Assembly: GCF_001677475.2 (NCBI RefSeq)
Contig: NZ_CP015229.1
DNA from: Escherichia coli
GTDB taxonomy: Bacteria; Pseudomonadota; Gammaproteobacteria; Enterobacterales; Enterobacteriaceae
DNA length: 64,000 bases
Reading direction: 5' to 3' (one strand)
The notes beneath the pieces were generated by a model. The model did no database searches. It was not told the DNA's origin and saw nothing but the letters and a program-made list of their open reading frames with translations. Of this stretch, positions 1 to 61,050 are shown piece after piece (the first letter of the stretch is position 1; each line of letters opens with the position of its first letter). The position numbers and the translations under genes are program-made.

Positions 1-1
1 C

Positions 2-4494: not shown

Positions 4495-5046
4495 ATGAAT
4501 CGCACATCCCTGATTAAATTAATTCATGTCGCCCGTCGTGATCTACAACTCGACGATGACACTTACCGCGCCTTTCTGGTGCAGTGCACAGGCAAGACCA
4601 GCTGCCGCGAGCTGTCCGTTGCACAACTGGAACGTGTGCTCGATGCCATGAAAGAGTGCGGTTTTAAAAAGCAGAAAAAACATCCCCGCCGTCGCTTTAA
4701 GGGGCATGTCACACCGCGCGAGAAGATTTATAAAATCTGGCAGCAGATGTTTCAGGATGGCTTTATCGCTGATGGCAGCGATGTCGCGCTGGACAAATAC
4801 GTTGCACGCCTGACGGCCAGACGTAATGGCGGTCAGGGGGTTTCCACGCTGGCCTGGTGTCACGGGGAATCGTTGCAGGTTGTGCTCGAAACGCTCAAGC
4901 AGTGGCACATGCGCTGCATCCGGGAAGCCTTTGCCCGACATGGTGTGCCGTTACCTGCAAGCCCATCCGGGCGGGAACTACGCGGATATGATGCACTGAC
5001 CAGTGCATATGCCCGCGCACGAAACAGCGGGAGAATTGCTGTATGA
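4495..5046 (+). CDS. gemA: GemA-like protein (Mu gp16 family)
   Basis: 183 aa; GGAGG RBS; position before mor. Confidence 0.75.
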   Translation: MNRTSLIKLIHVARRDLQLDDDTYRAFLVQCTGKTSCRELSVAQLERVLDAMKECGFKKQKKHPRRRFKGHVTPREKIYKIWQQMFQDGFIADGSDVALDKYVARLTARRNGGQGVSTLAWCHGESLQVVLETLKQWHMRCIREAFARHGVPLPASPSGRELRGYDALTSAYARARNSGRIAV

Positions 5047-17153: not shown

Positions 17154-17337
17154 GCCAGCGCGGGAAAACGTCCGTGTCCGTAAACCGGATGGCGCGCATT
17201 TATCCCCGGAAGGGGAACGTCTCGACGTCGGGGCGTACTGGCGACGTCGTGAAGCCGAGGGGGATGTGGTGATTGCTGATGTTCCGGCAGAAACATCCCT
17301 CCCTGAAACCAAAAATCAGAAACGAAAGAGGAAGTAA
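17134..17337 (+). CDS. small hypothetical protein
   Basis: 67 aa from ATG 17134. Confidence 0.4.
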   Translation: MEQKLIKPARENVRVRKPDGAHLSPEGERLDVGAYWRRREAEGDVVIADVPAETSLPETKNQKRKRK

Positions 17338-30961: not shown

Positions 30962-31147
30962 ATGGATGCTGTTCGTTGTAAAAACTGCAATAAATTGCTG
31001 TTTAAAGGAAGTTTTAAGCATATAGAAATCAAATGCCCTCGTTGTAAACGTTACATTGTCATGTCGAGTGCCCGGGAGCATCCCACGGAGCTGTATTGTG
31101 GGAAAAGAGAAGAAATCACGCATCCTTACAAAACCCTGCGTTATTGA
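30962..31147 (+). CDS. com: Com zinc-finger translational activator of mom
   Basis: 61 aa; [33 protein letters not shown]...THPYKTLRY closely resembles Mu Com. Confidence 0.85.
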
Positions 31148-31793
31148 GTATGAAGGCCGTATTGTCGGCTATGGTTCAAGGGAACTGCGCGTTGAAACCA
31201 TATCCTGCTGGCTGGCCCGCACAATCATTCAGACAAAGCACTATTCCCGCCGTTTTGTGAATAACTCCTGGTTGCATCTGGGGGTATTCAGCGGACGTGA
31301 TCTGGTTGGCGTTCTCCAGTGGGGATACGCCCTTAATCCCAACTCAGGGCGTCGGGTCGTGCTGGAAACGGATAACCGGGGCTATATGGAACTGAACCGC
31401 ATGTGGTTACACGACGACATGCCCCGCAACTCTGAATCACGGGCTATCAGCTACGCACTGAAAACCATCAGGTTACTGTATCCATCAGTGGAGTGGGTTC
31501 AGTCCTTTGCAGACGAACGCTGCGGACGTGCAGGTGTTGTGTATCAGGCATCTAATTTTGATTTTATTGGTAGCCATGAAAGCACGTTCTACGAGCTGGA
31601 CGGCGAGTGGTATCACGAGATAACGATGAACGCGATTAAGCGTGGAGGACAACGAGGCGAGTATTTGCGGGCTAATAAGGAGCGGGCGGTGGTACACAAA
31701 TTTAATCAGTATCGCTACATCAGATTCCTGAACAAGCGCGCAAAAAAGCGACTAAATACTAAGCTATTCAGGATTCAGCCATACCCGAAGTGA
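31098..31793 (+). CDS. mom: Mom DNA adenine modification protein
   Basis: No in-frame ATG near 5' end; GTG 31098 (GGAG 9 nt upstream) gives 231 aa; overlaps com by 50 nt. Confidence 0.8.
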
Positions 31794-31814
31794 TCCCACG
31801 TAATGAATAAAAAA

Positions 31815-31837
31815 GCAGCGGCCAATGCCGCTGTTTT

Positions 31838-31838
<1 letters not shown>
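31815..31838 (+). terminator. rho-independent terminator after mom
   Basis: GCAGCGGC-CAAT-GCCGCTG then TTTT. Confidence 0.55.
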
Positions 31839-32244
<406 letters not shown>

Positions 32245-32356
32245 TTGTCATTTGTTACCGGTCAGTCTACACATTTCAGATGCTGCGTTAAAAAACCCAA
32301 GTACTTCAAGTAGCACATCGTCATCAACACCCAGCCCCAAGATACGGTGATAAAAT

Positions 32357-33390
32357 TCAAGCCTTAAGAGGCTTTGTGTATGTTCGTGTAATCCATCCAG
32401 TAATAAACTCGTCCCCTGATTTAACCTGCACGAAAAGCCATTGGCGATCTTTTTTATCTAAAACAGCCACTATAGTATTTTTGCCAATGCATTCAATCAC
32501 CTCACTATTTATAGAAGGACTGACGTGTAATCTTACGTTCTCACCAGTTATAAAACGAAAACCATTGAGATCTTCCCAACTAATTTCTTTGTTTTCTTTA
32601 ATTAATTGTTGTTTTGATATTGGTTTATCCTCAAACAGAGATATAAAATATGATTCTGCCTTGTGTATTCCCAGCAAGGTTTTCTCTTTTCCGTAATCAA
32701 TAAAAGCACCAAACACAACTTGAGAAAATATAACCATTAGTAACCATTGCAGTGGATAAGGAAGCTCTTTAAATGAATCAACAAACTTTGAGCTAGGTTT
32801 ATTTAATCCTTTATTTTGAACATTACTTTTGGTGTGTGATGTTTCAGTAGCACCTTCAGCATAAGCCTGCGCAATAGATGAAATCCCCTGCTCTATTATT
32901 TGATGTAATGAAGCATTTCTTGTTCTAGCATAGTGATCTAGTACTTTCTTTATGTCTTGGCTTACATCTGTTTTATAACTTGCACTTTGTTGTAATTCTT
33001 TAAGTATCGCTTGCATGTTATTTAAACCAGCTTGCTTATTAAGCACCTCAAGCTGTTTTCGTAATGGCATAGCTATTTCGGCCTGTTTCCTTAGCATTTG
33101 AATATATCTATTTGCGTCATGAGGGAAAAGAGCCTGAGTCTGTTTCTGTAAAATCGCGATATGTTCACGATACTTGCTGCCTATTCCAGCCAAGTTCGGC
33201 ATACTAGCCAATTGTTTTCGAAGAGAGTTACTAATTACAGCTTGTCTATTCAATCTTGTCATATTTTGAAAAGAATGTTTTTCTATTCCTAATTGTTTTT
33301 GCAAGATCGCTACGTGATCTTTGTATGATGGAATGAGCACTGACTGTTTATACAGTAACTTCAACTCATTAGAATTAGTAATTTTTGTCA
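32357..33390 (-). CDS. membrane protein with internal repeats and SH3-like C-terminal domain (sim-region)
   Basis: AT-rich; repeats HVAILQKQ / EHIAILQKQ, one TM, C-terminal beta-rich domain; start uncertain. Confidence 0.45.
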
Positions 33391-33465
33391 TATTATTCCA
33401 TTTATATAATAGAATATTACGCAACCAATGTTTTATTGATTGCGTTAATCTTTAACACAGAAAGA

Positions 33466-33942
33466 TCATTTGCCTCGTTTAATACATCCATCCATTTTGG
33501 CTTGTTGATACAACTTACTTAGCCCAGAAAGAGGGAATGTAGCAATTTTTTCATTATCAACATAAGCATCAATCATATTAGCATTTGAATCTGCTGCATC
33601 TTGCCAAAAGGCATACCACCAAGAATCTCCAACCATTGATCCAAGATTGCTAAAAGGATATTGCTCACCATCTATAGTTAATACTATTTTATTCTTGTCA
33701 GCATTATACTCTTTTTTATTATTCGACGAACTTAGCAACAAGCCTAAACTACCTGCACTATCTGGTGAACCATACATGAATCCCATATCACATAAAAAAC
33801 TTATCTTATCACCATTATGATTATGGATTGTATATTCTCTCCCCCCTCTCTCTTCAATTACATTCCATTGTAGAGGATCAATTTTTGCAAATGTTCCTGC
33901 TGAAACTAACGATACAAATAATAAAAACCATCTCATATTCAT
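33466..33942 (-). CDS. secreted protein with signal peptide (sim-region)
   Basis: 158 aa; N-terminus MNMRWFLLFVSLVSAGTFA; AT-rich. Confidence 0.55.
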   Translation of the reverse strand: MNMRWFLLFVSLVSAGTFAKIDPLQWNVIEERGGREYTIHNHNGDKISFLCDMGFMYGSPDSAGSLGLLLSSSNNKKEYNADKNKIVLTIDGEQYPFSNLGSMVGDSWWYAFWQDAADSNANMIDAYVDNEKIATFPLSGLSKLYQQAKMDGCIKRGK

Positions 33943-33964
33943 TCTTTTCGCTTCTTATCTGTAA

Positions 33965-34315
33965 TTATTCTGCAATATCATTTGCCCATTGCACGGCAGC
34001 AAAATGAGTACCCAAACCACTCAGGAAAGCAATTACCCCCAAAACAATACTTGCTGCTGTTGATTCAAACAAAGTACCAATACTATAGCCAATAGCTCCC
34101 CATACTAAGCTAAATACAATCATCAATGGTATTGCCAGAAATTTTATTCTTAAACTAAAAATCAGTCCAAGAAAAGAACCGCCAAAGGCCCACCATGATT
34201 TAGACATTAAACCTATCAGTATTGACAGAATTCCTATTTCAATAAAGAGAATATTAGATTGCTCTTCATTGAATTTCGCATTTGTTACACCTTTACGAAC
34301 ATGTTCAGATGACAT
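33965..34315 (-). CDS. small multi-pass membrane protein (sim-region)
   Basis: 116 aa; AGGAG RBS; 3 hydrophobic segments. Confidence 0.55.
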   Translation of the reverse strand: MSSEHVRKGVTNAKFNEEQSNILFIEIGILSILIGLMSKSWWAFGGSFLGLIFSLRIKFLAIPLMIVFSLVWGAIGYSIGTLFESTAASIVLGVIAFLSGLGTHFAAVQWANDIAE

Positions 34316-34453
34316 GATTAACTATCTCCTGCCACAGATAAAACGCCTTAAAATAACATTTTGTAGCATAAAGTTTCACCATGCAATGGTCAAAATCTTT
34401 GACCCATATCAATTAAACTCATACATTTTAGTTACCAGGGAAATAATTTACAT

Positions 34454-34470
34454 GGTTACAAGTTGCTCTA
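34454..34470. promoter_or_regulatory. C1 repressor operator-like 17-mer upstream of immI
   Basis: GTTGCTCTAATTATTTT versus P1 consensus ATTGCTCTAATAAATTT. Confidence 0.45.
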
Positions 34471-34654
34471 ATTATTTTATTTTTTTAGCTTCATATGCTA
34501 CATTAACTTGCTTGCGTGCTAATGCATTTTCGGTTTATCCTAAACAGGCATCTTAGTAAAATGGATGCCGGGATTGGAACCCCGGATAATGCAAAAGGCG
34601 ACACAGACGCCAAAAGCGTCTTTTTTTGTGTCATGCCATCGCACAGCCATACGT

Positions 34655-34745
34655 AGCACATAGCTCCGAGATCAATGGTAGTGCTGGCTGGGCTGCCGAA
34701 AGGCAGGCCGGTTCCCTTTTGCGCCGGTAGTTCCAACCCAGTCAG
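34655..34745 (+). ncRNA. c4: c4-like antisense regulatory RNA region of immI (boundaries approximate)
   Basis: Segments complementary to GATTGGAACC / CCATTGAG elements present upstream (34571) and at the icd RBS (34754-34770); position between operator and icd. Confidence 0.4.
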
Positions 34746-34812
34746 TGCTACCGCCATTGAGATTGGAACCTCACGCGGTAGCTCCTTAAATTAGCAAAAG
34801 GAGGCTGCCATT

Positions 34813-35034
34813 GTGGCTACTATCCCTACCCCTACTCATCCTGAATTTATCTGGCGCTTTTACTCCTGCCAAAAACACCACTATCACTTCGTTATCGCAG
34901 CAACAGAAGACGAAGCACGCTCTCAATTGCCTGATGGCCCCTGCATTTTTACTGCCCGTTTTTCAACTAACTCGCGCAATTCACTTAGTTACTGGAACCT
35001 CCCCTTCTCTGCCGACGTTCAGGGGGGTTTATGA
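34813..35034 (+). CDS. icd: Icd-like cell-division interference protein
   Basis: 73 aa; GTG start after AAAGGAGG; stop overlaps ant start. Confidence 0.6.
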   Translation: MATIPTPTHPEFIWRFYSCQKHHYHFVIAATEDEARSQLPDGPCIFTARFSTNSRNSLSYWNLPFSADVQGGL

Positions 35035-36152: not shown

Positions 36153-36169
36153 TTTGCTCTAATAAATTT
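36153..36169. promoter_or_regulatory. C1 operator-like 17-mer upstream of kilA-repL
   Basis: TTTGCTCTAATAAATTT, 16/17 to P1 consensus. Confidence 0.55.
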
Positions 36170-36238: not shown

Positions 36239-37039
36239 ATGCAACAAACATTCAATGCGGATATGAATATATCAAACCTTCATCAAAATGTCGATCCTTC
36301 AACCACTCTGCCCGTTATTTGTGGTGTTGAAATTACGACCGACCGCGCTGGCCGTTACAACCTTAATGCTCTACACAGAGCGAGCGGACTCGGTGCCCAT
36401 AAAGCGCCAGCTCAATGGCTAAGAACGCTGTCAGCCAAACAGCTCATCGAAGAGCTTGAAAAAGAAACTATGCAGAATTGCATAGTTTCGTTCGAAGGCC
36501 GTGGCGGCGGCACGTTTGCCCATGAATTGCTCGCTGTGGAGTACGCAGGCTGGATTTCTCCCGCGTTTCGGCTGAAGGTAAACCAGACATTTATCGACTA
36601 TCGAGCCGGAAGATTACAACCTGCTATTCCGCAGAGTCTCCCTGAAGCTCTCCGTTTGGCTGCCGACCTGGCAGAGCAAAAGCAACGGCTGGAGCAAAAA
36701 ATGCTTATGGATGCACCTAAAGTCGAATTCGCCGAACGCGTTGCTACCGCCAGCGGGGTTCTAATCGGCAACTATGCCAAAGTGCTCGGCCTGGGCCAAA
36801 ACTATCTCTTCACCTGGTTGCGTGATAACGGAATTCTGATCGCAACCGGTGAACGCAGGAACGTCCCCAAACAAGAATACATATCCCATGGGTATTTCAC
36901 CCTTAAAGAAACCGTGATCGATACAAGCAATGGAAGCAGGATTTCTTTCACGACTCGTATAACCGGCAAAGGTCAGCAGTGGCTGATGAAGCGATTGCTT
37001 GATGCTGGTGTGCTGGTACCTGTCGCGGCAACGCGCTAA
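36239..37039 (+). CDS. kilA: KilA (KilA-N plus KilAC domains)
   Basis: 266 aa; C-terminal half paralogous to Ant C-terminus. Confidence 0.7.
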   Translation: MQQTFNADMNISNLHQNVDPSTTLPVICGVEITTDRAGRYNLNALHRASGLGAHKAPAQWLRTLSAKQLIEELEKETMQNCIVSFEGRGGGTFAHELLAVEYAGWISPAFRLKVNQTFIDYRAGRLQPAIPQSLPEALRLAADLAEQKQRLEQKMLMDAPKVEFAERVATASGVLIGNYAKVLGLGQNYLFTWLRDNGILIATGERRNVPKQEYISHGYFTLKETVIDTSNGSRISFTTRITGKGQQWLMKRLLDAGVLVPVAATR

Positions 37040-37068
37040 CAGACGTAGTAAGAACCACCAGCATTGTA

Positions 37069-37914
37069 ATGCTGGCTAAAGTCACTTTCCTGAGCTGTAT
37101 AACGATGAGCGATTTTACTTTTTCTGGCTATGAATTGGCCTGCTTTGTAACACACTCCGGTCTATCCCGTAGCGCCGGGCATATCCTGTCGCAATGTGCA
37201 AATCTCGCGGCAACAACCAGTGAATACTTCATTCACAAGCCTCACCGCCTGATCGCGGCAGAAACTGGTTATAGCCAATCAACCGTCGTTCGTGCATTCC
37301 GTGAAGCTGTAAACAAAGGAATCCTGTCGGTAGAGATTGTTATCGGCGATCACCGTGAACGCCGCGCTAACCTGTACCGGTTTACACCATCCTTTTTAGC
37401 CTTTGCTCAACAAGCCAAAAATGCGCTAATTGAAAGCAAATTAAAGATCTCTTCAGCCGCAACCAAGGTTAAAGCTGTTCTCGCTAACACATTGGCTTTA
37501 TTTGATTTTTTATCCACACCCCCATGTCAAAATGATACCCCCTCCCCCTGTCAGGATGACGTGGCAATAAAGAATAAGAAGTCACAAATTAAAAAAACAA
37601 AAAGATCAGTTTCCGGCGGTACCGGAACGACCAGCCTCAAAAAACTGACTTCATGGATCGCTGAGGCAAAAGCAAAGGCTGACAATCTGCGGTTATCCAA
37701 AAAACGCGCTCAAAAACATGAGTTCAAGCAGAAAGTAGAGGCGGCAGCGCGGAAATATGCTTACCTGAAGAACAAGCGTTCTCCTGATATTGGCGGGATA
37801 TCAAACTTCGATAATCTGCCGCATTGCATGACGGTAAACGAAGCTCTTAATGAGGTTTTAGCCAAAAATAAAGATAACGAACAATGGGGTATACCGGCAG
37901 GATTCAGAGGTTAA
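37069..37914 (+). CDS. repL: RepL-like lytic replication initiator
   Basis: 281 aa; follows kilA; start uncertain (alternative ATG 37105). Confidence 0.65.
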   Translation: MLAKVTFLSCITMSDFTFSGYELACFVTHSGLSRSAGHILSQCANLAATTSEYFIHKPHRLIAAETGYSQSTVVRAFREAVNKGILSVEIVIGDHRERRANLYRFTPSFLAFAQQAKNALIESKLKISSAATKVKAVLANTLALFDFLSTPPCQNDTPSPCQDDVAIKNKKSQIKKTKRSVSGGTGTTSLKKLTSWIAEAKAKADNLRLSKKRAQKHEFKQKVEAAARKYAYLKNKRSPDIGGISNFDNLPHCMTVNEALNEVLAKNKDNEQWGIPAGFRG

Positions 37915-38082
37915 TGAATTGCTCTAATTAGAACTATACATACTTTCAACACTTCTAGTTTGCCATGAGGCAAACTCATAGGCGTCTTGGTAAGAGGACA
38001 CAGTTGCCAAAACTGGACGTCCCATTATTGCAATTAATAAACAACTAACGGACAATTCTACCTAACAATAAGTGGAGTTAAC

Positions 38083-45189: not shown

Positions 45190-45345
45190 GACTTTCTCGC
45201 GAAAAGTAATTTTTTAAATTTTTTATGCGGGGAAGTGGACGGTGAAAGCAGGCGTTAAATCGTGGGAATTTCAGTCTGAAATTTTTCTAAAAAATATATT
45301 TAAATCATAATGTTATCAATGAAATTGGCGCAGGACATTTTAGGC
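45190..45345. other. parS: parS-like centromere region
   Basis: AT-rich region downstream of parB with ATTTCAG/CTGAAAT heptamers and TGGCGC box; boundaries approximate. Confidence 0.4.
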
Positions 45346-45381
45346 AGGGGAGGAGGCTAAAACCACCTCCCACCAGCGGGA

Positions 45382-46347
45382 TTATTCCCCAGCAGACATT
45401 TTCCCAATGATTTTTTTTATTGCTTCGTCAATTTCAGTTTGCACTTCAGACGGGAGTCTGGAGAACTCGTAGGCGACTACCCGTTTTTTCGGATCGGACT
45501 TCTTTCTGGCGTATTGACGACGGTCAGAGAAGTCTCGCAGCTTCTCAATCACCACAGATTTAACCGGCGCGGGCTTCAGGCTTTTGCTTTCCGCTTTGAA
45601 GATAGCCAGTATCTTCGATTTATCCTCTTTCGCGCCCTCAGTCTCTGCAATTCGTTCGCGCACCGTATCAACCAGCTCTTCAATCGGCACGCTTTTAGCG
45701 TTAGCATCCTCGGCGATCTGGAGCAGTAACTGGTAATCTGGCAGGGCGAGATCGCTGGCAACAGGGAAGACAGCAATCATCTCATCCGGCACCGCGGCAG
45801 CCTGGAAAGCTCGCGTCACTTTAGCCTTTGAGATGTTCTCAGCTCGGGCGATCTCTTCTTTGGTCATATTCTTACCGTACATAACCTCGAAGCGTTTACC
45901 CAGCTCGCGCAGAGTGTGTTCGCGGGCTGTCTGGATATCAATGGCCAGCTGGCGGGCATCTGCCAGGCTGATCTCATCTTTCGTCACCAGAATCTCAAAT
46001 TTCGTTTCATTGAAGATACACGCAGCGCGGCGACGTGATCCGTCCAATACCTCAATGCGCTCCCCAACCATACGACCGATAGCCGGGAAGAACTGTTGCA
46101 ATTTAATGGTGCGGGAAATATCGCTTACCGACTCAGGGGTGAGCAGAGACTGATCGCGGCCGTTAACTGCCGGGTCAACGAACGTGCGCGACTCAATCTC
46201 ACCACTCAGCACAACGGTAAGCAAAAATTTAGCCTGGCGGCCAGATTTTAGGGTAAAGGTTTTGGTGCCTTCACTGCCTTCAAGCATGCGAGCAAACTCG
46301 GAGCTATTCTTGCCCAGCACTCGTCCACGGGAAACTATTTTTTTCAT
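45382..46347 (-). CDS. parB: partition protein ParB
   Basis: 321 aa; ParB/Spo0J-like; overlaps parA stop. Confidence 0.8.
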   Translation of the reverse strand: MKKIVSRGRVLGKNSSEFARMLEGSEGTKTFTLKSGRQAKFLLTVVLSGEIESRTFVDPAVNGRDQSLLTPESVSDISRTIKLQQFFPAIGRMVGERIEVLDGSRRRAACIFNETKFEILVTKDEISLADARQLAIDIQTAREHTLRELGKRFEVMYGKNMTKEEIARAENISKAKVTRAFQAAAVPDEMIAVFPVASDLALPDYQLLLQIAEDANAKSVPIEELVDTVRERIAETEGAKEDKSKILAIFKAESKSLKPAPVKSVVIEKLRDFSDRRQYARKKSDPKKRVVAYEFSRLPSEVQTEIDEAIKKIIGKMSAGE

Positions 46348-47555
46348 GCCGCCTCACCCCTAACAAACTCAATTCGATCAAACACAGCCTTAGTGAAACG
46401 CTCGGCCTCGGTTCGTGCCTTCTTCAGCGCCTCTGCACTGCCTGGATACGATTGCGGGTTGGCACTGATTACGGTGTCGAAAGACTCGCCGCATCGCTCA
46501 AAGCCATCCAGACGAGGCAGAGAAGAGTCCAGAATGTTGCTGGCGTAAACCTCACGCGCAAGGCTGTGTGATGTCTCGTGATCGCGCTTGCCGGTCATCT
46601 TCGACATAAAACCAATGCTGGCGCTCAAACGCGGTTCTACGCCTTCCTCCTCCAGTTGCTCCAGCATTTCTGGCAGACGGGTGAGATATTTCAGTGTTGA
46701 GTGGAAGTCAACCTGGGCTGGTGGGGTAGGGGTAAGCAGCAAATCGCTGGCCGCCAGACCGTTGAGCAGGAACGGATCCAGGTGTGGACCGGTATCAATA
46801 AAGATAAAGTCATAATCATCCGCAACACGATCAATGATATTGCGTCGAAGGATTTCGTACTGATTTTGTCCGGGAAGATGCTCTTCAACCAGCTCTTTCC
46901 ATTGGCTGGCAACAAAGCCATCGTCGATAGAGGCTGGAATCACGTCTACGCCAGGAACGATGGTCGGACGAATCACCTCTTTGCGTAGCGTCTCCGCGTC
47001 CAGGTCGTTCAGCATCGCCTGCGCGGCGGTTTCCAGGATGGAACCAATACTGTGAGTATGGTCGAGGAACATTGTGCTGGATGCCTGAGGGTCAAGGTCA
47101 ATTACCAGAATGCGCAGATCGTGACGCAGTAAATCCTGATGCACACGCAGAGCGTGCGCCAACGTAACTGTGGAAACCGTTTTGGATACGCCACCCTTCA
47201 GGTTTACGACAAAAATAACGTAAGGCGATTTGTGAATGTCGCGATATTTGGGGATCTTACGGTGGGCATAGATATCAATGACGTTCTGGATGGTCAGCGC
47301 GTACTGTTCAACGTTACCGACCTGTTTCTTGTTGAACTGGTACCCATCATCTTCCATCTCTTTGATGGCCTGCTCCACAATGCGGCGGCTCAGCTTCGGC
47401 AACTTTGCCACAGCGTTACGAGTGAACGTCTGATAATACTCGGTCTGATTGAACTCTTTGCGCTGATCTTCAATATCCTGACTCATGGCCTTAAGTAATG
47501 CGCTTGCACGAAGAGCTATGGTGCCAACACCGCCGTAATCGCGTTTCATCATCAT
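46344..47555 (-). CDS. parA: partition ATPase ParA (type Ia, N-terminal extension)
   Basis: 403 aa; deviant Walker A NLKGGVSKT; architecture as P1 ParA but sequence divergent. Confidence 0.85.
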   Translation of the reverse strand: MMMKRDYGGVGTIALRASALLKAMSQDIEDQRKEFNQTEYYQTFTRNAVAKLPKLSRRIVEQAIKEMEDDGYQFNKKQVGNVEQYALTIQNVIDIYAHRKIPKYRDIHKSPYVIFVVNLKGGVSKTVSTVTLAHALRVHQDLLRHDLRILVIDLDPQASSTMFLDHTHSIGSILETAAQAMLNDLDAETLRKEVIRPTIVPGVDVIPASIDDGFVASQWKELVEEHLPGQNQYEILRRNIIDRVADDYDFIFIDTGPHLDPFLLNGLAASDLLLTPTPPAQVDFHSTLKYLTRLPEMLEQLEEEGVEPRLSASIGFMSKMTGKRDHETSHSLAREVYASNILDSSLPRLDGFERCGESFDTVISANPQSYPGSAEALKKARTEAERFTKAVFDRIEFVRGEAA

Positions 47556-47659
47556 CTCCTTATCATTTCGTATGAGTGAATTGTACGTTTGATTCTGCTA
47601 CGTGCAACTTTTTTTGATTCGTGCGTCAATTATTGCACGTAAAGAAATGGCGATGAGGC

Positions 47660-47952
47660 TATTAGATGTGTGCTGGAGGGATGATGCAGGACCAGAATGT
47701 GCGATAGAGGGAAGTCGCATTGAATTATGTGCTGTGGAGGGATCGCTGGTATCAAATATGTGTGCTGGAGGGAAAGGCAGAGAATTACATGTGCACTGGA
47801 GGGAAAAACGGATGGACAGATGTGTGCTGGAGGGAAAGTCTGGGCAAACTGCGGGGCGTCCCCCTCCAGCGCACATCAAAAACAGGAAATTGGACAAGCC
47901 TTCCCGTCAGCACACATTTTTTTAATGCAGCTTCCCTCCAGCACACACTTAT
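47660..47952. repeat. incA-like iteron array downstream of repA
   Basis: About 8-9 copies of GATGTGTGCTGGAGGGAAA-type 19-mers in both orientations. Confidence 0.7.
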
Positions 47953-49782: not shown

Positions 49783-50119
49783 TACCCGCCGCAACCAGTT
49801 GTTTCTGAACTTCAGCTTTTCGTTCCATTTGCCTGTCAGCATATTTGGCTTGTTCTGATTCATTTTTCACTTCCTGGCTGTGAAAATGTTGCTCTGCTTT
49901 GTTCATCGTCTCAATGGTCTGGTTAAGATCCATTATTGACTTATCACGTTCCTTAACAGCCTGATCAAGACTGCCAATTTTCTCCATGGCTTGCTTTAGC
50001 TGATGACGTTCCCATGCAAACCCAGCACCAACAAGTGCGCAAATCAGAACAAGAACACCAGTAGCAGCAAGTTTCTCCTTCAAAGACAAAGCTGTTTTTA
50101 ACGTAGAAAAGAATGACAT
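49697..50119 (-). CDS. membrane-anchored coiled-coil protein
   Basis: ATG 50119 after AGGAGGA RBS; TM then helical region; overlaps lipoprotein gene out of frame. Confidence 0.55.
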   Translation of the reverse strand: MSFFSTLKTALSLKEKLAATGVLVLICALVGAGFAWERHQLKQAMEKIGSLDQAVKERDKSIMDLNQTIETMNKAEQHFHSQEVKNESEQAKYADRQMERKAEVQKQLVAAGNVRQRIPADTQRLLRESISEFNADADKG

Positions 50120-51319: not shown

Positions 51320-51336
51320 ATTGCTCTAATGAATAT
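51320..51336. promoter_or_regulatory. C1 operator-like 17-mer in divergent promoter region
   Basis: ATTGCTCTAATGAATAT, 15/17 to consensus. Confidence 0.45.
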
Positions 51337-51407
51337 TGTTTTTTATGTAGTATTTTCGGTACCATTCAGCCATCGCCCTTCAATGGGCATTTGTTTGGAG
51401 TCGTCAG

Positions 51408-51692
51408 ATGCAGATGGAGCTAATAAGCCGCAAGGAGTTCGATAGCCGTGTAACCAGCGGTGAACTCGACAACTTGCAGGCTATCAAGGTGAAAGAAGGC
51501 TTTTGCCTCATTGGGAATCAGAGCGGAACAAATCGCGTTTTTATGCTTCGCCGTACGGATTTGAAGCCATTTGTCTGGAAGAACGAAATTGGTCCCAGCT
51601 CATACGCTCAAACGAGGGGGTGCCACAACTTGGCCTTTTTCTACAAAGACGAGCTTTCTGTGGTTGATATTCAAGGGTTACAACATGTTTAA
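51408..51692 (+). CDS. hypothetical protein
   Basis: 94 aa ORF upstream of RdgC-like gene. Confidence 0.45.
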
Positions 51693-52590
51693 GCACTGGA
51701 AAAACATTACTATTTATAAACTTTCTCGTGAGGCGGATCTGACCGACTTAGAAGATAAAAAGAAAATGATCCTTTTCACGCCATGCGGTAGTCAGGATAT
51801 GGCCAAGTTCGGTTTTGTATCGCCATTTGGTGATAATTCCGAAGTTATCGCTATGCATGGAAATGGTTTTATCCTTGTTGAAGCAAAGCGCGAAACAAAA
51901 ATTCTTCCCCCGCCGGTTATCCAGCGAGCTATTCAAGAAAAAATTGAAAAACTTGAGCAAGAACAAGCGCGTAAACTGAAGAAAACAGAGAAGGATTCCC
52001 TGAAAGACGAAGTTCTGCATTCTCTTCTGCCACGGGCTTTTTCAAAGTTTTCTGTTATCCAGGCGATCTACGATGGTTCAACTAAACGTATCTATATCAA
52101 TGCCAGCGCGCGGCAGGCAGAGGATATGCTCGCACTTATGCGTAAGTCTCTGGGTTCTCTTCCTGTTGTTCCCCTAAGTGTTGAAAATCCCATTGAATTA
52201 ACGCTGACCGACTGGGTACGTGATGGTAGTGCTCCACAGGGATTTCAAATGGGGGATGCGGCAGAACTTAAGGCAGTGCTTGAGGATGGCGGTATTGCCC
52301 GAGTGAAAAAGCAGGATTTGGGAAGCGATGAAATTTCCACACACCTGGAAGCTGGCAAGCTCGTCACTAAGTTGGCACTCGACTGGCAGAACCGCATTAA
52401 ATTTACACTGGACCATAACTTCAGCCTTACCAGCGTCAAATTTGCGGATGAATTGCTTGAGCAGAACTCTGATATTGATAGTGAAGATGTTGCGCAGCGA
52501 CTGGACGCAGATTTCTTCCTGTTGACCAGTGAAATTTCGTGCCTGGTTGATGCTCTGGTAAATGCCCTTGGCGGAGAGGCTAAGCAGTGA
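51685..52590 (+). CDS. RdgC-like recombination-associated protein (hrdC position)
   Basis: 301 aa from ATG 51685; N-terminus [15 protein letters not shown] like RdgC MLWFKNLMVYRL. Confidence 0.7.
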
Positions 52591-55500
52591 AAGAGCTGTG
52601 CTATGGATCTGTTTGCAGTGGAATTGAAGCCGCGAGTATTGCCTGGGAACCGTTGGGTATGCGTCCGGCGTGGTTTGCTGAAATCGAGCCTTTTCCATCT
52701 GCCGTTCTTGCGCTCCGCTGGCCCCATGTCGCCAACCTTGGCGACATGACAAAACTTGCCAAAAAAGTCTTGGCTGGGGAAATCGAATCCCCTGACGTGC
52801 TCGTCGGGGGAACACCATGTTTTACCGCGGGGCATATGGTTCTTTGTAAAAATGGTTATAAACCAATAGAAGATGTTTGCCCTGGCGATTACGTAGTCAG
52901 TCATCTCGGGCGGTTACAACAAGTAAAAAGAGTTGGTTCAAAAATAGCTAATACGGGGTTACTTAATGCCGTTGGGCAGCCTTTAGGTATAAGAACAACC
53001 AATGACCATCCCTTCCTGGCTGTTCGGTGGAAAGCCCAAAACACCCGGAAAAATGGCACATATTTTAAGAGAGAGTTGTTGTCTGAACCGGAATGGCGAG
53101 CAGCATGTGATATGCCGGGATATCAATGGTGCGCTCTAACTAATTTCAATATTGCATCTCCAGATATTTGTTCTCGGTTCTTGTCTGAAGAACAGGCTAT
53201 GTATCTTGCGGGCGCTTATGTTGGCGATGGATATATTAGGAGATGGAGAGGTAAATCTAAGAAGGCGGTTGTTTTTGGCATAAATTGCCAGAAATTGAGA
53301 AAGTTTCATTGCCGCATACCAGAAAACATATTTTCCGTGGCAAGCGAAATCCGAGGGAGCATCAAAGTAACCTTGAATGATACGTGTTATGCCAATTGGC
53401 TTAATGAACATTTTGGCGAGTTAAGCCATGCTAAGCGTATCCCTGCATGGGTGATGTCGCATCCATTGCGTCATGTGTTTTTACAAGGCTATCTTGATAC
53501 TGATGGGACACCAAGTGGTAAAGCGGGATTTAGAATTAATAGTGTTAGTCCTGCGCTTGCTTGGGGCGTTGCGGGGTTGTCACAGACTTGTGGTTATGTT
53601 TCTTCGGTCAGCTTTATTGAAGTTGAGCCCAAAAAAGTGATCGAGGATCGCGTGGTAAATCAACGGAATTATTATCAGGTAACAATCTGCCCGCAGAAAT
53701 TGTCACGTAAATCAAGATTGGCTCATGGAATGCTTTTACGAACAGTCAAAGAGTTTAAATCGGTAGGCCTAGATACTGTATACAACATAGAAGTCGAAGG
53801 TGATCATTCCTATATCCTCAATGGTGCGGTGGTCCATAACTGTCAGGCATTCAGTATCGCGGGCTTACGTGGTGGGCTTGATGATGAACGCGGCGCGCTA
53901 ACTTTGAAGTATGTGGAGCTTGCAAATGCAATTGACGACAAACGGTCTGAGTCCTTCCTCAAACCGACAGTTATCGTCTGGGAAAATGTCCCAGGAGTCC
54001 TGTCATCGGCAGATAACGCCTTCGGATGTTTCCTTGCCGGATTGGCTGGAGAAGATGCGCCATTTGAACCAGGTGATCGACCTGAATCAGGAAAAAGTAA
54101 CGCGTTCTGGCGGTGGGATGGCAAAACCGGTTGCCATGCTCCAAAGTGGCCGCAGTGTGGTTGTATTTATGGACCGCAGCGAAAGGTGGCCTGGAGAATC
54201 CTTGATGCCCAATACTTCGGAGTGGCACAACGACGCCGACGCGTGTTTGTTGTCGCAAGTGCTCGAACAGACCTCGATCCCGCAACGGTACTTTTTGAGT
54301 TCGAAGGCGTGCGCCGGAATATTGCGCCGAGCCGAAAAAAGAAGGAAATCGCTTCCGCCATTATTGCAAATGGCGCTGCAATCAGTGGCGAAAGCCTAAA
54401 TCCATGCCTACACGCTGACATGCCACCCGGTATGAAATCGACGAAAGCCGTAAACGCTTTCAGGATGGCGGCATTTGGGGAATATATTGACGATGAAACC
54501 GCATCGACAGTAAAGGCAAGAGATTTTAAAGATGCCACTGACCTTGCCGTTTTTAGCAGCACAGGAGCAGGTTTTTGGTCAGAAGGGCATGGTACATTGC
54601 GGGCACGTGAGCAAGAAAGCCATGAGCATCTTGTTACATTGGCTTTTCCTGAGCGTATGAGCGGTACACAACATGCTGCAACTAAGAATACTTCACCATC
54701 TCTAATGGCTAAAAATCCAACAGCTGTTTGCTATGAAGTAAGAAACGCAGAAGTAGCTGTCCGCCGTCTTACCCCTGTCGAATGTGAAAGGCTGCAAGGT
54801 TTTCCTGATGGGCATACGTTGATCCCGACGGAAAAGCGTAAAAAAGTTAATTCAGATGAACTGGCATATCTTCGCAATCACTATCCAGATTTAAGCGAAG
54901 AAGAGGCCGCGATGCTTGCAGCTGACGGACCGCGTTACAAAGCGATCGGCAATAGTATGGCAATACCAGTAATGCGCTGGATTGGCGATCGGATTACTAA
55001 GGCCGTATGTCGGCAGAAAGAAGGAAGTGAAACAAAAGAGCGAAAAGTTAAACCAGCGGCAGAATTCGAACGGTCCATATTCAAATGGGCTGGTGGAAAA
55101 TTTGGTGTTCTGGAACAAATCTTTCGCTATTTGCCAGAAGGGAAGCGCCTGATTGAACCTTTCGTTGGTGGCGGAGCTGTCTTCATGAATGCCGGATACC
55201 AGGAAAATCTGCTAAATGATGTGAATGCTGACCTGATTAACTTTTACAAGACTCTGCAACGCGAGGCGCATTCACTTATCACTCTGGCACATCGTTTCTT
55301 CCAGGACTACAACACACAGGAAGGATACCTGGCAGTACGGAATGCGTTTAACAAACAAGTCTATGATGATTTACATCGCGCAGCGGCGTTTTTGTTCCTG
55401 AACCGACATTGTTTTAACGGATTGACGCGTTACAACCAGGCCGGTGAGTTCAATGTCGGTTACGGGAAGTATAAAACTCCGTATTTCCCATTACAGGAGA

Positions 55501-55844
55501 TGGAAGCCTTCCTCGGTGCGGAAGGGCGGTCTGAGTTTGTATGCGGTGATTTTGCAGCGGTGATTGAAGCTGCCGGAGAAGGAGATGTCATCTTTTGCGA
55601 TCCGCCGTATGAACCGCTTCCAAATACAGAGGGATTCACGAACTATTCCGGTCATGACTTTAAGTTTGAAGAGCAAAAACGCCTGGTGTCTCTGTTGACG
55701 GATGCTCATCGTCGAGGTGCAAAGGTTCTCATTACTAACAGTGGCGCGCCAAACATCAGAGAGCTTTATCATGACAGTGGCTTCAGAGTGGAACCTCTTT
55801 TTGCCAGACGTTCTGTGTCTTGTAAGGGGACACTCGAGGTGTAG
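52587..55844 (+). CDS. bifunctional DNA methyltransferase: C5-cytosine domain (interrupted by intein) fused to Dam-like N6-adenine domain
   Basis: 1085 aa; C5 motifs GGTP/CQAFS, ENV, QRRRR, RLQGFP, GNS; Dam motifs [10 protein letters not shown] and DPPY. Confidence 0.8.
52818..53840 (+). other. intein with LAGLIDADG homing-endonuclease domain inside the methyltransferase
   Basis: 341 aa from CFTAGHMV to GAVVHN followed by +1 Cys; TTNDH block; [11 protein letters not shown] and [11 protein letters not shown]. Confidence 0.7.
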
Positions 55845-55863
55845 CTCATGACGTTTTGGGTAT

Positions 55864-55880
55864 ATTGCTCTAATAAATTT
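55864..55880. promoter_or_regulatory. C1 operator 17-mer, perfect consensus, upstream of tRNA-tci-ban operon
   Basis: ATTGCTCTAATAAATTT. Confidence 0.55.
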
Positions 55881-56053
55881 ATTAGTGTAATATCGCCTCA
55901 ATGAATCGTGATTTATAGAGCGATTTAGCTGTTAGCCGCGACAGGCGCGGCGGTAAGCATGGCTGGGCCTAGTCCTCCCAGACAAACCACCGAGTTGCCA
56001 GGTTGACCATGCGCCTAAGTGGCAACGCCGAAGTGCGTTACGAGCTTCCAGTT

Positions 56054-56080
56054 TGCCCATCTTCGGGTGGGCGTTTTTTT
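56054..56080 (+). terminator. terminator-like hairpin in operon leader
   Basis: GCCCATC-TTCG-GGTGGGC then T7. Confidence 0.4.
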
Positions 56081-56545
56081 CAGGGTTTTCGTCATAGTTA
56101 GCGACTTTGCGGCGGTTTAGAAACTGACCATTAAAGTAAATGCAAACGATGATCTGATGATGGTAGCGGCCTAAGAAGCCAGATGCCACGGGGTATGAGT
56201 CGTCCCCCGTCAAAAAATCGACCGCAGAGTGTCCCCGTCTGTGTATTAGGGAACGGGGAGGCACAACAGGTAAGGGCGCTGGTGTGATTAACCAGATGAA
56301 CGAGAAGGGGCCATCTGTTGGTCAGCGTCCTTTCCTGTTGCGTTTTCTTTTCAGCGTAACAGCGGTGCTTAACAGCACTTTGGGTACAGTTCCACGAATT
56401 TACGGGTATATCCCGTCATGCTGAAGGCGCTAATCACGCTGGAAGCCAGGGTTGTGCATCCCCTGTTACCGAATTGCAGCCAGGGCGCGGTGCGCCGAAA
56501 AGCATACGGAGGTGGAAGCCCTCGCCGGAGACGTACCCGGCAAGT

Positions 56546-56621
56546 GATGGTGTAGCTCAGCGGTTAGAGCGGTTGACTGTTAATCAACGGGTCGATGGTT
56601 CAAATCCATCCACCATCGCCA
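56546..56621 (+). tRNA. tRNA-Asn (anticodon GTT)
   Basis: Cloverleaf folded by hand; anticodon loop CTGTTAA; T-loop GGTTCAAATCC; encoded CCA. Confidence 0.85.
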
Positions 56622-56623
56622 AT

Positions 56624-56699
56624 GCCGGTTTAGCTCAGTTGGTAGAGCGCCTGCCTTGTAAGCAGGATGTCAGCGGTTCGAGTCCGTTAATCGGCACCA
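56624..56699 (+). tRNA. tRNA-Thr (anticodon TGT)
   Basis: Cloverleaf folded by hand; anticodon loop CTTGTAA; T-loop GGTTCGAGTCC; encoded CCA. Confidence 0.85.
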
Positions 56700-57626
56700 G
56701 CACAACAGGTAAGGGTATTTTGCGACGTCGGAGATCGCCGAGCTTGGCAGAGGGTTCGAATCCCTACGAAGTACCCTTACCGTTGTGATGAATGCGCAGG
56801 CTGATGCGCGAAAGACATTGCAGCTATTGCGGAAAAGAGCTGTTCGGCGGGGCAATTAAACGCCCGTGAGAGTCTGAAATAACCGCAAGCCGGAGATCAG
56901 CACCGGTCATCACAACACAACAGGTAAGGGCATTCTCCCTTATGGGGCTTGGCTTAAATGCATCGAGTGCTCTTACCGTTGTGATGAAGTGCAGCTCTTT
57001 GAAGCAACCAGAAGATAAGCATCTGGCTTCACAACATAAACCGCAGGAACGACCAATAAACGGTAGTCCGTATGGAGAACACCCCGTTGAGGAAGAGGCC
57101 TGGCCGGAACCGTAACCGGCACTACAACGTTGAGAACACTGGCGTAACGGGGTCATATCCCAATCTACGAATAAATGTTGCGTTGCAGCGTGACAACCAG
57201 TGTTCTCAACATTGTGGTGAATGCACAGGCTGATGTGCCGCAACTACAGTAGTGCGCGCTTTGCGGGGCTTGCTACAACCCTGTGTCGGAGTTCAGCACC
57301 GACCATCACAGTTTGATTCTCTGGCATGAGCATAACGCTGAAATAAGTCCAGTCTGGTGCGGCCCGATCACCCGCCGTTAGCTCCACGAAACGGAGCACG
57401 TAACAGGTAAGAGCATTCTCCTGTAACGGGTTCATATCCCAATCTACAGGTCCACCAGGAATGCTCTTTCCGTTGCGGTGAATGCGGCTAAGCGCACGCG
57501 GGGAAATGGTTATATCTGTCCATTATTTCTCCTTATTTCCCCGTCCACGGTGGATAACCAGCCAAAGGACACCGGGAGGCACCCGGCACCGCAACCTTAT
57601 TTCCCAACCAGTAATGAGGTTAATAA

Positions 57627-58052
57627 ATGCTCGGTATTCTCAAAAAGAAATTCCGCAAAGCGGCTGGCGGAGTCAAGAAGATGGAAAACCGTGATGCGGT
57701 GGAAGCGACTGTCTGGGGCGCATATTCCATTGCATACTCTGACGGCACCTGCGATGCGAAAGAAATTGCAGTATTGGAAAAAACCATTGCAGCACTTCCT
57801 GCCTTTGCGCCGTTCTCCGGTGAAATTGCCCAGATGAGCGCCAATATTCGCGCTCAATATGAAGCCTCGCCGCGCCGAGCGAATGCCCAGGCTTTACGTG
57901 AACTGGCTGACGTGTCTGGAACTAATGATGCGGTAGATGTTCTGTGCCTATGCATTGATATTGCTGACCAGGATGGCATTGGGGCAGAAGAGCAGGAGCA
58001 ATTGAAGAAAATTGCCCAGGCTCTTCAATTGCCACTGGAACAGTATATCTGA
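57627..58052 (+). CDS. TerB-like domain protein (tciA position)
   Basis: 141 aa; GAGG RBS; helical, acidic. Confidence 0.65.
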   Translation: MLGILKKKFRKAAGGVKKMENRDAVEATVWGAYSIAYSDGTCDAKEIAVLEKTIAALPAFAPFSGEIAQMSANIRAQYEASPRRANAQALRELADVSGTNDAVDVLCLCIDIADQDGIGAEEQEQLKKIAQALQLPLEQYI

Positions 58053-58216
58053 TGGTTATAAAAGCACGTCTAATTCTGGCTTTGGTTTTTCTCGTGCTAT
58101 CTGTGCTGGTGGATTTCACCAGCACAATCCTGTCGGTTTTATCCGACGGGGCGTTGGTAGCAGTAGCTGTAACATTGGTATGGCCGATATTTAAACCAGC
58201 CTCGAAGGATCAGTGA
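58052..58216 (+). CDS. small hydrophobic membrane peptide
   Basis: 54 aa; ATG overlaps previous stop; two hydrophobic helices. Confidence 0.45.
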   Translation: MVIKARLILALVFLVLSVLVDFTSTILSVLSDGALVAVAVTLVWPIFKPASKDQ

Positions 58217-58323
58217 TGAGCTTCTGGGATTTTGCAGATAAGTATCCAATTGTTCTCATTATCATTGTTGCCATAGTTGTAGGCGGTATTGTTAGCGCCA
58301 TTGAAGCACTTAGGAAACAGTAA
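58216..58323 (+). CDS. small hydrophobic membrane peptide
   Basis: 35 aa; ATG overlaps previous stop (TGATG); one TM. Confidence 0.4.
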   Translation: MSFWDFADKYPIVLIIIVAIVVGGIVSAIEALRKQ

Positions 58324-58326
58324 TCC

Positions 58327-58402
58327 GGCCCTTTAGCTCAGTGGTTAGAGCTGGCGACTCATAATCGCACGGTCACCGGTTCAAGTCCGGTAGGGGCCAC
58401 CA
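58327..58402 (+). tRNA. tRNA with CAT anticodon (Met or lysidine-dependent Ile)
   Basis: Cloverleaf folded by hand; anticodon loop CTCATAA; T-loop GGTTCAAGTCC; encoded CCA. Confidence 0.8.
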
Positions 58403-58687
58403 TATTTGGTTGTAACACGGCGTCTGGCACATGCGTCGTTAGCGGTCTGGTAACGTTAAAGGGGTTACCTTTTCCCCTAGCTCAGGCAACAAACCAGGTA
58501 GCCGAAATGTGCAAGTCACCGTTGGAGGGATAGCGGATACAGGGACTCACCATCCTGGCGATTCGGTGTGACAGCCGGGAAGAGTCCGGCGCATTAATCC
58601 TGATTTTCTGGTGATGACTCATATCGTTAGGAGTGATTTGAGTATGCCGATTATATCTGACATTCAGCACGCCTGGGTGGAGTGCTA

Positions 58688-60052
58688 ATGTCTGCATCCC
58701 CTCTTGAATCCATGCCAAATTCCCTTAGTGCAGAACAAGCTGTACTTGGTGGCTTAATGCTTGATAACTGCCGCTGGGATGAAGTTGCAGATCGTATAGT
58801 TGCTGATGATTTTTATACCAGTGCTCATCGTGAAATTTTCAGTGAGATGGAGAGGTTATTAAGTCATGGCAAACCGATTGATTTGATAACACTTGCTGAA
58901 GCACTTGAACAGAACGGTAAATTAGAACGCGCCGGTGGTTTTGCGTACCTTGCGGAGATGTCAAAGAACACGCCCAGCGCGGCAAATATTTGTGCTTATG
59001 CGGATATCGTTCGTGAACGCGCGGTTGTTCGTGAAATGATTTCCGTCGCAAATGAAATAGCTGAAGCTGGATATGCGCAGGATGGCAGGGGCAGCAATGA
59101 ATTGCTGGATATGGCCGAGCGCCGCGTTTTTGAAATAGCTGAAAAACGACAAAAGAGCGGTAGTGGTCCAAAAGATATCGCCAGCATTCTCGATGCAACG
59201 GTATCTCGCATAGAAGAGTTGTTTCAGCGACCGCATGATGGTGTAACGGGGCTTGATACCGGATTTACCGATCTCAATAAGAAGACGGCAGGACTTCAGG
59301 CGTCCGATCTCATTATTGTCGCCGCCCGCCCATCGATGGGGAAGACTACGTTTGCGATGAATCTCGTCGAAAATGCCGCAGTCCGTAACGATAAGCCCGT
59401 ATTGGTTTTTAGCCTTGAGATGCCGAGCCACCAGCTGATGATGCGCTCACTGGCTTCTCTTGCACGCGTTGATCAGACTCGTATTCGAACAGGGCAACTT
59501 AACGACGAGGATTGGGCGCGGGTTTCTGGCGCAATGGGGATTCTGTTGGACAAGCAGAATATTTTTATTGATGACTCAAGCGCCCTGACACCTACAGAGC
59601 TTCGTTCCCGCGCTCGTCGTGTTTATAAAGAAAATGGTGGTTTGAGCATGATTATGATCGACTACCTGCAACTTATGCGCGTCCCCGAGCTGCAAGATAA
59701 CCGAACGCTGGAAATTGCCGAGATTTCTCGCTCACTGAAGGCTTTGGCGAAGGAATTACAAGTACCGGTGGTGGCATTGTCACAACTTAATCGATCGCTT
59801 GAACAGCGTGCGGACAAACGACCGGTAAATTCAGATTTACGTGAATCAGGAGCAATTGAGCAGGACGCAGACCTGATCATGTTTCTGTATCGTGACGAAG
59901 TTTATCACCCGGATAGCGAAATGAAGGGCATTGCCGAGGTAATTATCGGTAAGCAACGAAATGGCCCAATTGGCACGGTGAGATTGGCTTTTAACGGCCA
60001 ATACTCACGGTTTGATAACTATGCCGGTGCTGACTGGCAAGAGGATTATTAA
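58688..60052 (+). CDS. ban: DnaB-like replicative helicase Ban
   Basis: 455 aa from ATG 58688; Walker A GKT, DnaB-family C-terminal motifs. Confidence 0.85.
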   Translation: MSASPLESMPNSLSAEQAVLGGLMLDNCRWDEVADRIVADDFYTSAHREIFSEMERLLSHGKPIDLITLAEALEQNGKLERAGGFAYLAEMSKNTPSAANICAYADIVRERAVVREMISVANEIAEAGYAQDGRGSNELLDMAERRVFEIAEKRQKSGSGPKDIASILDATVSRIEELFQRPHDGVTGLDTGFTDLNKKTAGLQASDLIIVAARPSMGKTTFAMNLVENAAVRNDKPVLVFSLEMPSHQLMMRSLASLARVDQTRIRTGQLNDEDWARVSGAMGILLDKQNIFIDDSSALTPTELRSRARRVYKENGGLSMIMIDYLQLMRVPELQDNRTLEIAEISRSLKALAKELQVPVVALSQLNRSLEQRADKRPVNSDLRESGAIEQDADLIMFLYRDEVYHPDSEMKGIAEVIIGKQRNGPIGTVRLAFNGQYSRFDNYAGADWQEDY

Positions 60053-60075
60053 TGCAATGGAATGAGGAAAAGCCG

Positions 60076-61050
60076 ATGAACATCCTGATCATTGGGCGAA
60101 AATTTGAAGCTATCAGTGATGTGAAAACATATACGGAAATGTGGGCTTATAACCTGGCCTGCGCCTTTAGTGAGGCAGGGGTAACATTGCAATACCATCG
60201 TCCATATTCCCCCAGCGTCGAAAGCCCGGAGGATTATGTTGAAGCTGTGTTGACCGCTGCGACCTCGTGTTCTGCGAAAGCCATTTTAGCGCCAGGATTG
60301 CGGTATTTTACTACGGTGCCCAGGGAAATAGGCGTGCAACTGCGTCGTCGATTCACTGGATGGGTAGCCCAGGTATACGACGGTTCTATGCTGGATTCGG
60401 CACCAGTCGATATTACTTTTACTGTCCGCGATGATACCTGGCGGTACCTGGATAATCCCGGCAGGTTAGAGCGTCATAATCGCTTTAACAAACATGTTGG
60501 ATGGGCAGCGAATCAGGATCTGTTCCATCTGGAAACCAAAACAGACGATGTTCTGCGTATTTTTGTAGACCACGCTGCATTTGATGTTAGTGGTTTTGAT
60601 CACTCCTTAAGTATCCTTATGAACCTTCAGCGTCTGACCGTTCCGTATGAGGCCAGAACGTTGACTGATGACGGATTGGTTACCATTGATCCGGGGAATA
60701 TTTCGGTAATTCCATACAGACGGACGCCGGTGCCAGCAACCGAATTTGCAGCTGAATTGCGTAAGAGTGACGTTTTTATCGTTACGCATCCCGAAAGCCT
60801 TGGATTAACTGTTCTTGAGGCGGCAATGTGCGGGGCGTTGGTATTAACGCCTCCCGATTGCCTTCCGCCAGATCGCCTGGCTTTGGTGAACCATATGGTT
60901 ATCAAGTCGCGGATTGATTGGGATGAGGTTATTGCTCGCGTTGATCGCGTGAAAAATGCTGAAAAGGTCCAGTGTCACACCTGGTCGGCAATTGCGGAAA
61001 AGATGCTTGAGACGTTTATCACGCAGAAACCGTCGTGCGGTAACGGATAA
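60076..61050 (+). CDS. glycosyltransferase-like protein (GT-B C-terminal domain), downstream of ban
   Basis: 324 aa from ATG 60076 with GAGGAA RBS (alternative ATG 60052); motif HPESLGLTVLEAAMCGALVLTPP. Confidence 0.55.
   Translation: MNILIIGRKFEAISDVKTYTEMWAYNLACAFSEAGVTLQYHRPYSPSVESPEDYVEAVLTAATSCSAKAILAPGLRYFTTVPREIGVQLRRRFTGWVAQVYDGSMLDSAPVDITFTVRDDTWRYLDNPGRLERHNRFNKHVGWAANQDLFHLETKTDDVLRIFVDHAAFDVSGFDHSLSILMNLQRLTVPYEARTLTDDGLVTIDPGNISVIPYRRTPVPATEFAAELRKSDVFIVTHPESLGLTVLEAAMCGALVLTPPDCLPPDRLALVNHMVIKSRIDWDEVIARVDRVKNAEKVQCHTWSAIAEKMLETFITQKPSCGNG

Follow-up and report, generated by a model that had tools for sequence, protein, structure and literature searches.

The operators controlled by the C1 repressor of phage P1 are asymmetric sequences of 17 bp that match ATTGCTCTAATAAATTT and share the near-invariant core TGC(T/A)CTAAT. 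In the window, by which we mean the whole analysed stretch of 64,000 nucleotides of Escherichia coli DNA, a perfect copy of this sequence lies between the methyltransferase gene dmt and a unit of tRNA, tci and ban genes, and related 17-mers occur elsewhere in the same stretch. This arrangement raised the question of whether these 17-mers are C1 operators, and which transcription units they would control. The window was scanned for mismatches against the consensus and with a position weight matrix (PWM) derived from 13 P1 operators, all of which lie outside the P1 region homologous to the window. The following matches were found (scores in bits of the PWM):

55864..55880, plus strand: ATTGCTCTAATAAATTT, the perfect consensus (0 mismatches; 28.3 bits); Op72a (Obana), equal to P1 68667-68683, the first half of the bivalent ban operator
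55875..55891, minus strand: ATTACACTAATAAATTT (2 mismatches; 23.2 bits); Op72b (Obanb), equal to P1 68678-68694 (minus)
36153..36169, plus strand: TTTGCTCTAATAAATTT (1 mismatch; 24.8 bits); Op53 (OrepL), identical in sequence to P1 OrepL 49810-49826
51320..51336, plus strand: ATTGCTCTAATGAATAT (2 mismatches; 24.5 bits); Op68 (Odmt), P1 Odmt 65145-65161, adjoining the -35 of Pdmt
34462..34478, plus strand: GTTGCTCTAATTATTTT (3 mismatches; 20.2 bits); Op51 (Oc4) analogue that heads a variant form of the immI unit (IsrK-like RNA, C4 RNA, icd, ant1/2)
37918..37934, plus strand: ATTGCTCTAATTAGAAC (15.3 bits; bases 1-11 as in the consensus, 3' half poor); Op55 (Orlf), P1 Orlf 51575-51591, 3 bp past the repL stop
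26851, minus strand: operator-like 17-mer (3 mismatches; 15.5 bits), antisense in the Mu-like ORF 26473-27468
60042-60058, minus strand: operator-like ATTGCATTAATAATCCT (13.7 bits) at the junction of the ban stop and the dbn start

The first-pass annotation had placed a perfect 17-mer downstream of the methyltransferase at the head of the tRNA-tci-ban unit, and an exact match was found there. Its near-match before kilA-repL at 36153 departs from the consensus at a single base and equals P1 OrepL/Op53, and its weaker site at 37918 is P1 Orlf/Op55. The near-match that it reported before immI is real, but the site begins at 34462 and not at 34454, a difference of 8 bases; the second 17-mer at 55875-55891 on the minus strand was absent from that annotation. 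In terms of score, five of these sites (28.3, 24.8, 24.5, 23.2 and 20.2 bits) fall within the range of the P1 operators used for the matrix (15.5-28.3 bits), and Op55 is borderline at 15.3 bits. On the sequence evidence presented below, the 17-mers are very probably operators of the phage P1 C1 repressor on a P1-like plasmid prophage. As such, the operators of the window are already known, that is, they are textbook P1 C1 sites placed as in P1.

Relation of the window to phage P1

A megablast search found window positions 54000-58000 to be 99.5% identical to phage P1. AF234172.1, whose annotation comes from the authors who published the P1 genome (Lobocka et al. 2004), served as the reference record for P1, and BLAST against this record aligned 31920-64000 collinearly with P1 46293-76608 at 96-99.5% identity, with the following gaps in the homology:

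32256-34840: the sim/immI region
45285-47662: the par region
52820-53841: an insertion in dmt
56799-56966: a further gap

Judged by this alignment, the stretch 31920-64000 is a P1-like (IncY) plasmid prophage. The P1-family assignment proposed in the first-pass annotation is thereby upheld for this part of the window, but it does not extend to positions 1-31919, which are a Mu-like transposable prophage. Positions 1-5000 of the latter are ~83% identical to Mu, SfMu and D108 (B, gam, gemA), and the com/mom region at 30972-31845 is 88% identical to SfMu. The right end of the Mu-like sequence at 31919 (...TTTTGCGCGCTTTA) adjoins P1 coordinate 46293 inside pmgC, and the P1-like plasmid appears from its sequence to carry a Mu-like insertion that disrupts pmgC, a putative morphogenetic gene. 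Chromosomal Mu-like prophages of E. coli have the same end up to 31919/31920 and different adjoining host genes, and the last ~70 bp differ from the R-end of Mu and SfMu, with the terminal dinucleotide TA in place of the CA at the SfMu right end. A 41-mer across the Mu/P1 junction had no match in genome_contigs or viral_contigs, and no record that spans the junction was found in ecoli_genomes and plasmids. Given its absence from every collection searched, the junction may be an assembly chimera.

The AF234172.1 annotation contains 20 monovalent C1 operator 17-mers, and for the P1 operators between 46.3 and 76.6 kb, six of six positions have a site in the window. Op53, Op55, Op68, Op72a and Op72b map one-to-one onto P1 through the 96-99.5% identity, and for the immI site the correspondence is one of position only. 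The P7 record likewise annotates the corresponding operators and promoters. With respect to the overlap or adjacency of operators and promoters, P1ban, Pdmt and PkilA were transferred from the P1 annotation to sequence that is identical or nearly so, and the immI promoter was obtained from an independent scan.

Several side observations concern the P1 record itself. Previous work has described the binding of C1 to an asymmetric 17-bp consensus, with 22 operators in each genome, and the functions of Lxc and Coi (PMC8546580). Unannotated PWM sites are present in AF234172.1 at 1485-1501 and 17166-17182, of which one is upstream of c8 and the other within the 5' end of darB; neither falls in the stretch covered by the window, and the same two sites score higher in the relative CP099272.1 (positions 56022 and 44925; 19.5 and 21 bits). 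These two sites may account for the 22 operators of the literature against the 20 annotated. In addition, P1 Omat (2628-2645) is annotated on the minus strand with a length of 18 bp, whereas the operator-like CATGCACTAATAAATAT occupies plus-strand positions 2628-2644; the annotation therefore looks like a slip of strand or length.

The genes for C1 and its partners were also sought, and tblastn located neither c1 nor coi nor lxc within the 64-kb window. Such a result, together with the Mu-like prophage end that adjoins P1 46293 inside pmgC at a junction found in no collection searched, and with the many P1-like plasmids known to carry deletions (PMC6906374), would agree with the view that the operators are intact but unused, as relics in a defective or rearranged P1-like plasmid without c1. 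This view is improbable, however. In P1, c1 is found at 93.2-94.1 kb, beyond the covered stretch, so that no c1 would be expected in the window. Moreover, loss of C1 would lift the repression of kilA and repL, and KilA is annotated in the P1 record as capable of killing the host, so that an element without C1 is unlikely to be stable. Furthermore, all six operator positions are preserved, and close relatives retain the repressor: CP099272.1 encodes a C1 that is 99.6% identical to P1 C1, and has the full operator set, in which ~20 sites reach 15 bits or more and occupy places that correspond to those of the P1 operators. The reading of the 17-mers as operators of a presumably working C1 circuit is thus preferred, and, judged by sequence, the element seems to retain an intact regulon alongside an intein in dmt and a Mu-like prophage in pmgC.

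The bivalent ban operator and the unit behind it

The two 17-mers at 55864-55891 are inverted relative to each other and overlap by the 6 bp of the self-complementary AAATTT, and together they form a near-palindrome of 28 bp (24/28 self-complementary) with the half-site cores TGCTCTAAT. Both P1 and P7 annotate Op72a and Op72b as the divalent Obanab. Bivalent operators of the Op72ab/Op99ab type consist of inverted 17-mers with a 6-bp overlap that cover 28 bp across a promoter, and this is the structure found here, with the operator spanning P1ban from -35 to -10:

55865..55893, plus strand: promoter P1ban (-35 TTGCTC at 55865-55870, 17-bp spacer, -10 TAATAT at 55888-55893)

P1ban was placed from the P1 annotation "sigma 70 promoter P1ban" through identical sequence, since window 55829-55961 corresponds base for base to P1 68633-68764. 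A consensus promoter scan reported neither P1ban nor PkilA; this was given no weight against them, since the -35 of P1ban matches the consensus at only 3 of 6 bases. No variation in Op72ab or the -10 of P1ban was seen among P1, P7 and SJ46, in contrast to the flanks. The dmt stop codon of the window lies at 55842-55844, 20 bp upstream of Op72a, whereas it lies inside Op72a in P1, P7, SJ46 and CP099272.1. The stop codon was shifted by a 1-bp deletion in the G run at 55826-55829, which has 4 G here and 5 G in P1 and SJ46. Either a genuine variant or a sequencing error in the homopolymer could account for the missing G.

The inverted repeat starts 20 nt past the dmt stop codon, and when 55845-55910 was folded as RNA, a hairpin of -19.4 kcal/mol was obtained (z = -5.1 vs shuffles). 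These properties could suggest that 55864-55891 functions chiefly as RNA, with the 28-bp repeat folding into a hairpin that stabilises or terminates the dmt transcript at its 3' end. Such a role is very unlikely, however: the stem is AT-rich and not followed by a T-run, the terminator scan gave no match, and the hairpin leaves unexplained why four other promoters carry the 17-mer as a single, non-palindromic copy. An inverted overlap of two operator half-sites folds in any case, which would make the hairpin a by-product of the operator. A terminator function of the Op72ab palindrome was also considered separately, and was rejected because of the missing T-run.

With Op72ab taken as a bivalent operator, two C1 molecules would be expected to bind to it, and in a lysogen the bound C1 would keep the leader-tRNA-tci-tRNA-ban(-dbn) unit shut. 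The components of this unit are as follows:

55936..61050, plus strand: the unit behind Op72ab, from the P1 annotation and from tRNA, terminator and ORF evidence
55936-56075: leader, 'dicF-like' in the P1 annotation
56054-56073: strong terminator-like hairpin after the leader (terminator scan)
56546-56621: tRNA-Asn
56624-56699: tRNA-Thr
57627-58052: tciA, followed by tciB
58327-58402: tRNA(CAT)
58682-60052: ban
60052-61050: dbn

The leader is ~76% identical over ~95 nt to many lambdoid and Stx phage sequences, and a search of Rfam at E <= 0.1 yielded no DicF match for it. Two possible readings of the leader are a short sRNA and an attenuator placed before the tRNAs and ban.

The remaining 17-mers and their transcription units

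With at most 3 mismatches to ATTGCTCTAATAAATTT, six matches were present in the window against 0.16 expected from dinucleotide-preserving shuffles, and the PWM scan was in agreement: six sites scored 15 bits or more, whereas 200 first-order Markov runs averaged 0.47 and never exceeded 4. The enrichment over shuffled sequence on which the first-pass annotation had made its operator set depend was thus borne out for the window. In addition, the 10-mer core TTGCTCTAAT occurs five times, always on the plus strand and always after 34000, in the P1-like half, where ~0.12 occurrences would be expected. That all of these matches are chance occurrences of an AT-rich word has next to no probability, even though chance alone would give ~2.8 PWM matches of 12 bits or more and two of the eight above 13 bits look like chance, because the observed count of six was attained in none of 100 shuffles of the window and the five sites of at least 20 bits fall at four loci, of which three (four sites) are orthologous to annotated P1 operators and the fourth is a positional analogue, all in one orientation except for the inverted partner Op72b. 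For the strong sites, chance is excluded.

The two minus-strand matches at 26851 and 60042 are probably chance. The former was considered as a possible cross-talk between C1 and the Mu-like prophage, and this was rejected because the match is antisense in ORF 26473-27468 and one chance match is expected at that score. The 17-mer at 60042-60058 falls within coding sequence and is identical in P1 (72649-72665), where it is unannotated.

At kilA-repL, the TCTAAT within Op53 is the -10 of PkilA (P53), which in P1 is located at 49815-49820, and PkilA controls kilA-repL (36239-37914). At Op55, no overlapping promoter was found, and the predicted PrlfA of P1 lies ~100 bp downstream of Orlf; Op55 may control rlfA/rlfB or may act as a roadblock.

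At Op68, the associated promoter was taken from the P1 annotation:

51336..51365, plus strand: promoter Pdmt (-35 TTGTTT, -10 TACCAT)

Pdmt drives uhr-hrdC-dmt (51408-55844). A divergent promoter had been proposed for the site at 51320. The operator itself stands as a 2-mismatch match corresponding to Odmt/Op68, but the divergence is not supported, as P1 annotates the rightward Pdmt only; in the leftward direction, the sole promoter-like match (51278->51250) does not overlap the operator. The suggestion that the methyltransferase and the tRNA/tci/ban genes belong to separately repressed units agrees with the P1 annotation, in which dmt lies behind Op68/Pdmt and tRNA-tci-ban behind Op72ab/P1ban. 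The terminator scan found no terminator between dmt and the ban promoter, so that read-through is possible after derepression. From the sequence, the dmt and ban units would each have an operator of their own, but they may not be insulated from one another.

The methyltransferase was also correctly described as intein-bearing. An in-frame intein of 341 aa is present in the C5-methyltransferase domain of Dmt, at window 52818-53840 (dmt ORF 52587-55844), and the insert carries Hint_2 and LAGLIDADG_3 (Pfam). It splits the catalytic PCQ motif (GGTP|C...VVHN|CQAFS). This intein is absent from P1, P7 and CP099272.1. Phage JL22 is 99.6% identical across 54000-58000, a query which begins past the intein.

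The operator-like site before immI lies in a module that differs from that of P1:

34447-34475, plus strand: promoter-like TTTACA-17-AATTAT, with the -10 inside the GTTGCTCTAATTATTTT 17-mer
34548-34626: IsrK-like leader RNA (Rfam isrK, 58.9 bits, above the gathering threshold)
34671-34758: C4 antisense RNA (Rfam)
34813 and 35031: icd and ant1, respectively

The Op51 analogue is located 70 bp upstream of the IsrK-like leader and ~190 bp upstream of the C4 RNA. The 2.6 kb of 32256-34840 gave no nucleotide alignment to P1 or P7, and the immI promoter region was considered non-homologous to that of P1 because a global alignment of the two aligned nothing. The layout of the module, in turn, was considered homologous, since the P1 leader gives a weaker isrK match together with the c4-a1b1 family at the equivalent place. 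Hundreds of E. coli IncY plasmids share the immI region at 99.3-99.9% identity, and the 17-mer GTTGCTCTAATTATTTT is also found in CP099272.1. Previous investigations have outlined that immI is a hot-spot of variation among P1-like plasmids (PMC6906374). It is conceivable, though rather unlikely, that the immI site marks an experimentally unstudied immunity-I specificity type, in which the strength of the coupling to C1 might differ from that in P1 and P7. If this were true, heteroimmunity would be affected among the many IncY phage-plasmids with this immI variant.

Proposed mode of control and comparison with P1 and P7

From the literature on P1, we infer that C1 would bind and repress at the sites of the window. 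C1 would recognise sites of the ATTGCTCTAATAAATTT type scattered over the genome, and as these sites overlap or adjoin the -35 and -10 elements of sigma-70 promoters, the bound C1 would exclude RNA polymerase. The binding of C1 is tightened by the corepressor Lxc (Bof). Apart from the ban unit, dmt would be controlled by its own operator Op68 at Pdmt, kilA-repL by Op53, and c4-icd-ant by the Op51 analogue. Coi and Ant1/2 are known to inactivate C1 (PMC8546580), upon which all of the units would be released together. In P1, thermal inactivation of C1 has been documented to induce ssb, dmt, kilA, ban and ref to differing degrees, with RT-qPCR for dmt and ban (PMC4713147).

The sites confirm a P1-type phage-plasmid at 31920-64000 that displays the standard layout of the C1 regulon, with immI, kilA-repL, dmt and ban each behind an operator of its own, which allows the transcription units to be labelled with confidence. 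The findings are of little importance beyond annotation; mildly useful are the bivalent nature of the ban operator and the position of the immI operator in a widespread variant module of IncY elements.

In comparison with P1 Op72ab (AF234172.1, 68667-68694), the ban operator of the window has the same 28 bp, with identity that extends over no fewer than 35 bp on the upstream side and 70 bp on the downstream side, occupies the same place between dmt and tRNA-tci-ban, and has the same 6-bp overlap. The monovalent operators Op53, Op55 and Op68 are found at positions orthologous to those in P1 and in the same orientation; Op53 is identical, whereas Op68 carries A12G and Op55 carries T14G. The Op51 analogue, which differs from the consensus by G1, T12 and T14, shares with Op51 of P1 and P7 a single co-oriented 17-mer at a promoter that heads a leader RNA, C4, icd and ant1/2. 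However, the 17-mer itself reads GTTGCTCTAATTATTTT here, whereas P1 has AATGCTCTAATAAATTT and P7 has TCTGCTCTAATAAATTT, the element that it overlaps is the -10 of the predicted promoter here and the -35 of P2c4 in P1, and the leader scores 58.9 bits against isrK here and 35 bits in P1.
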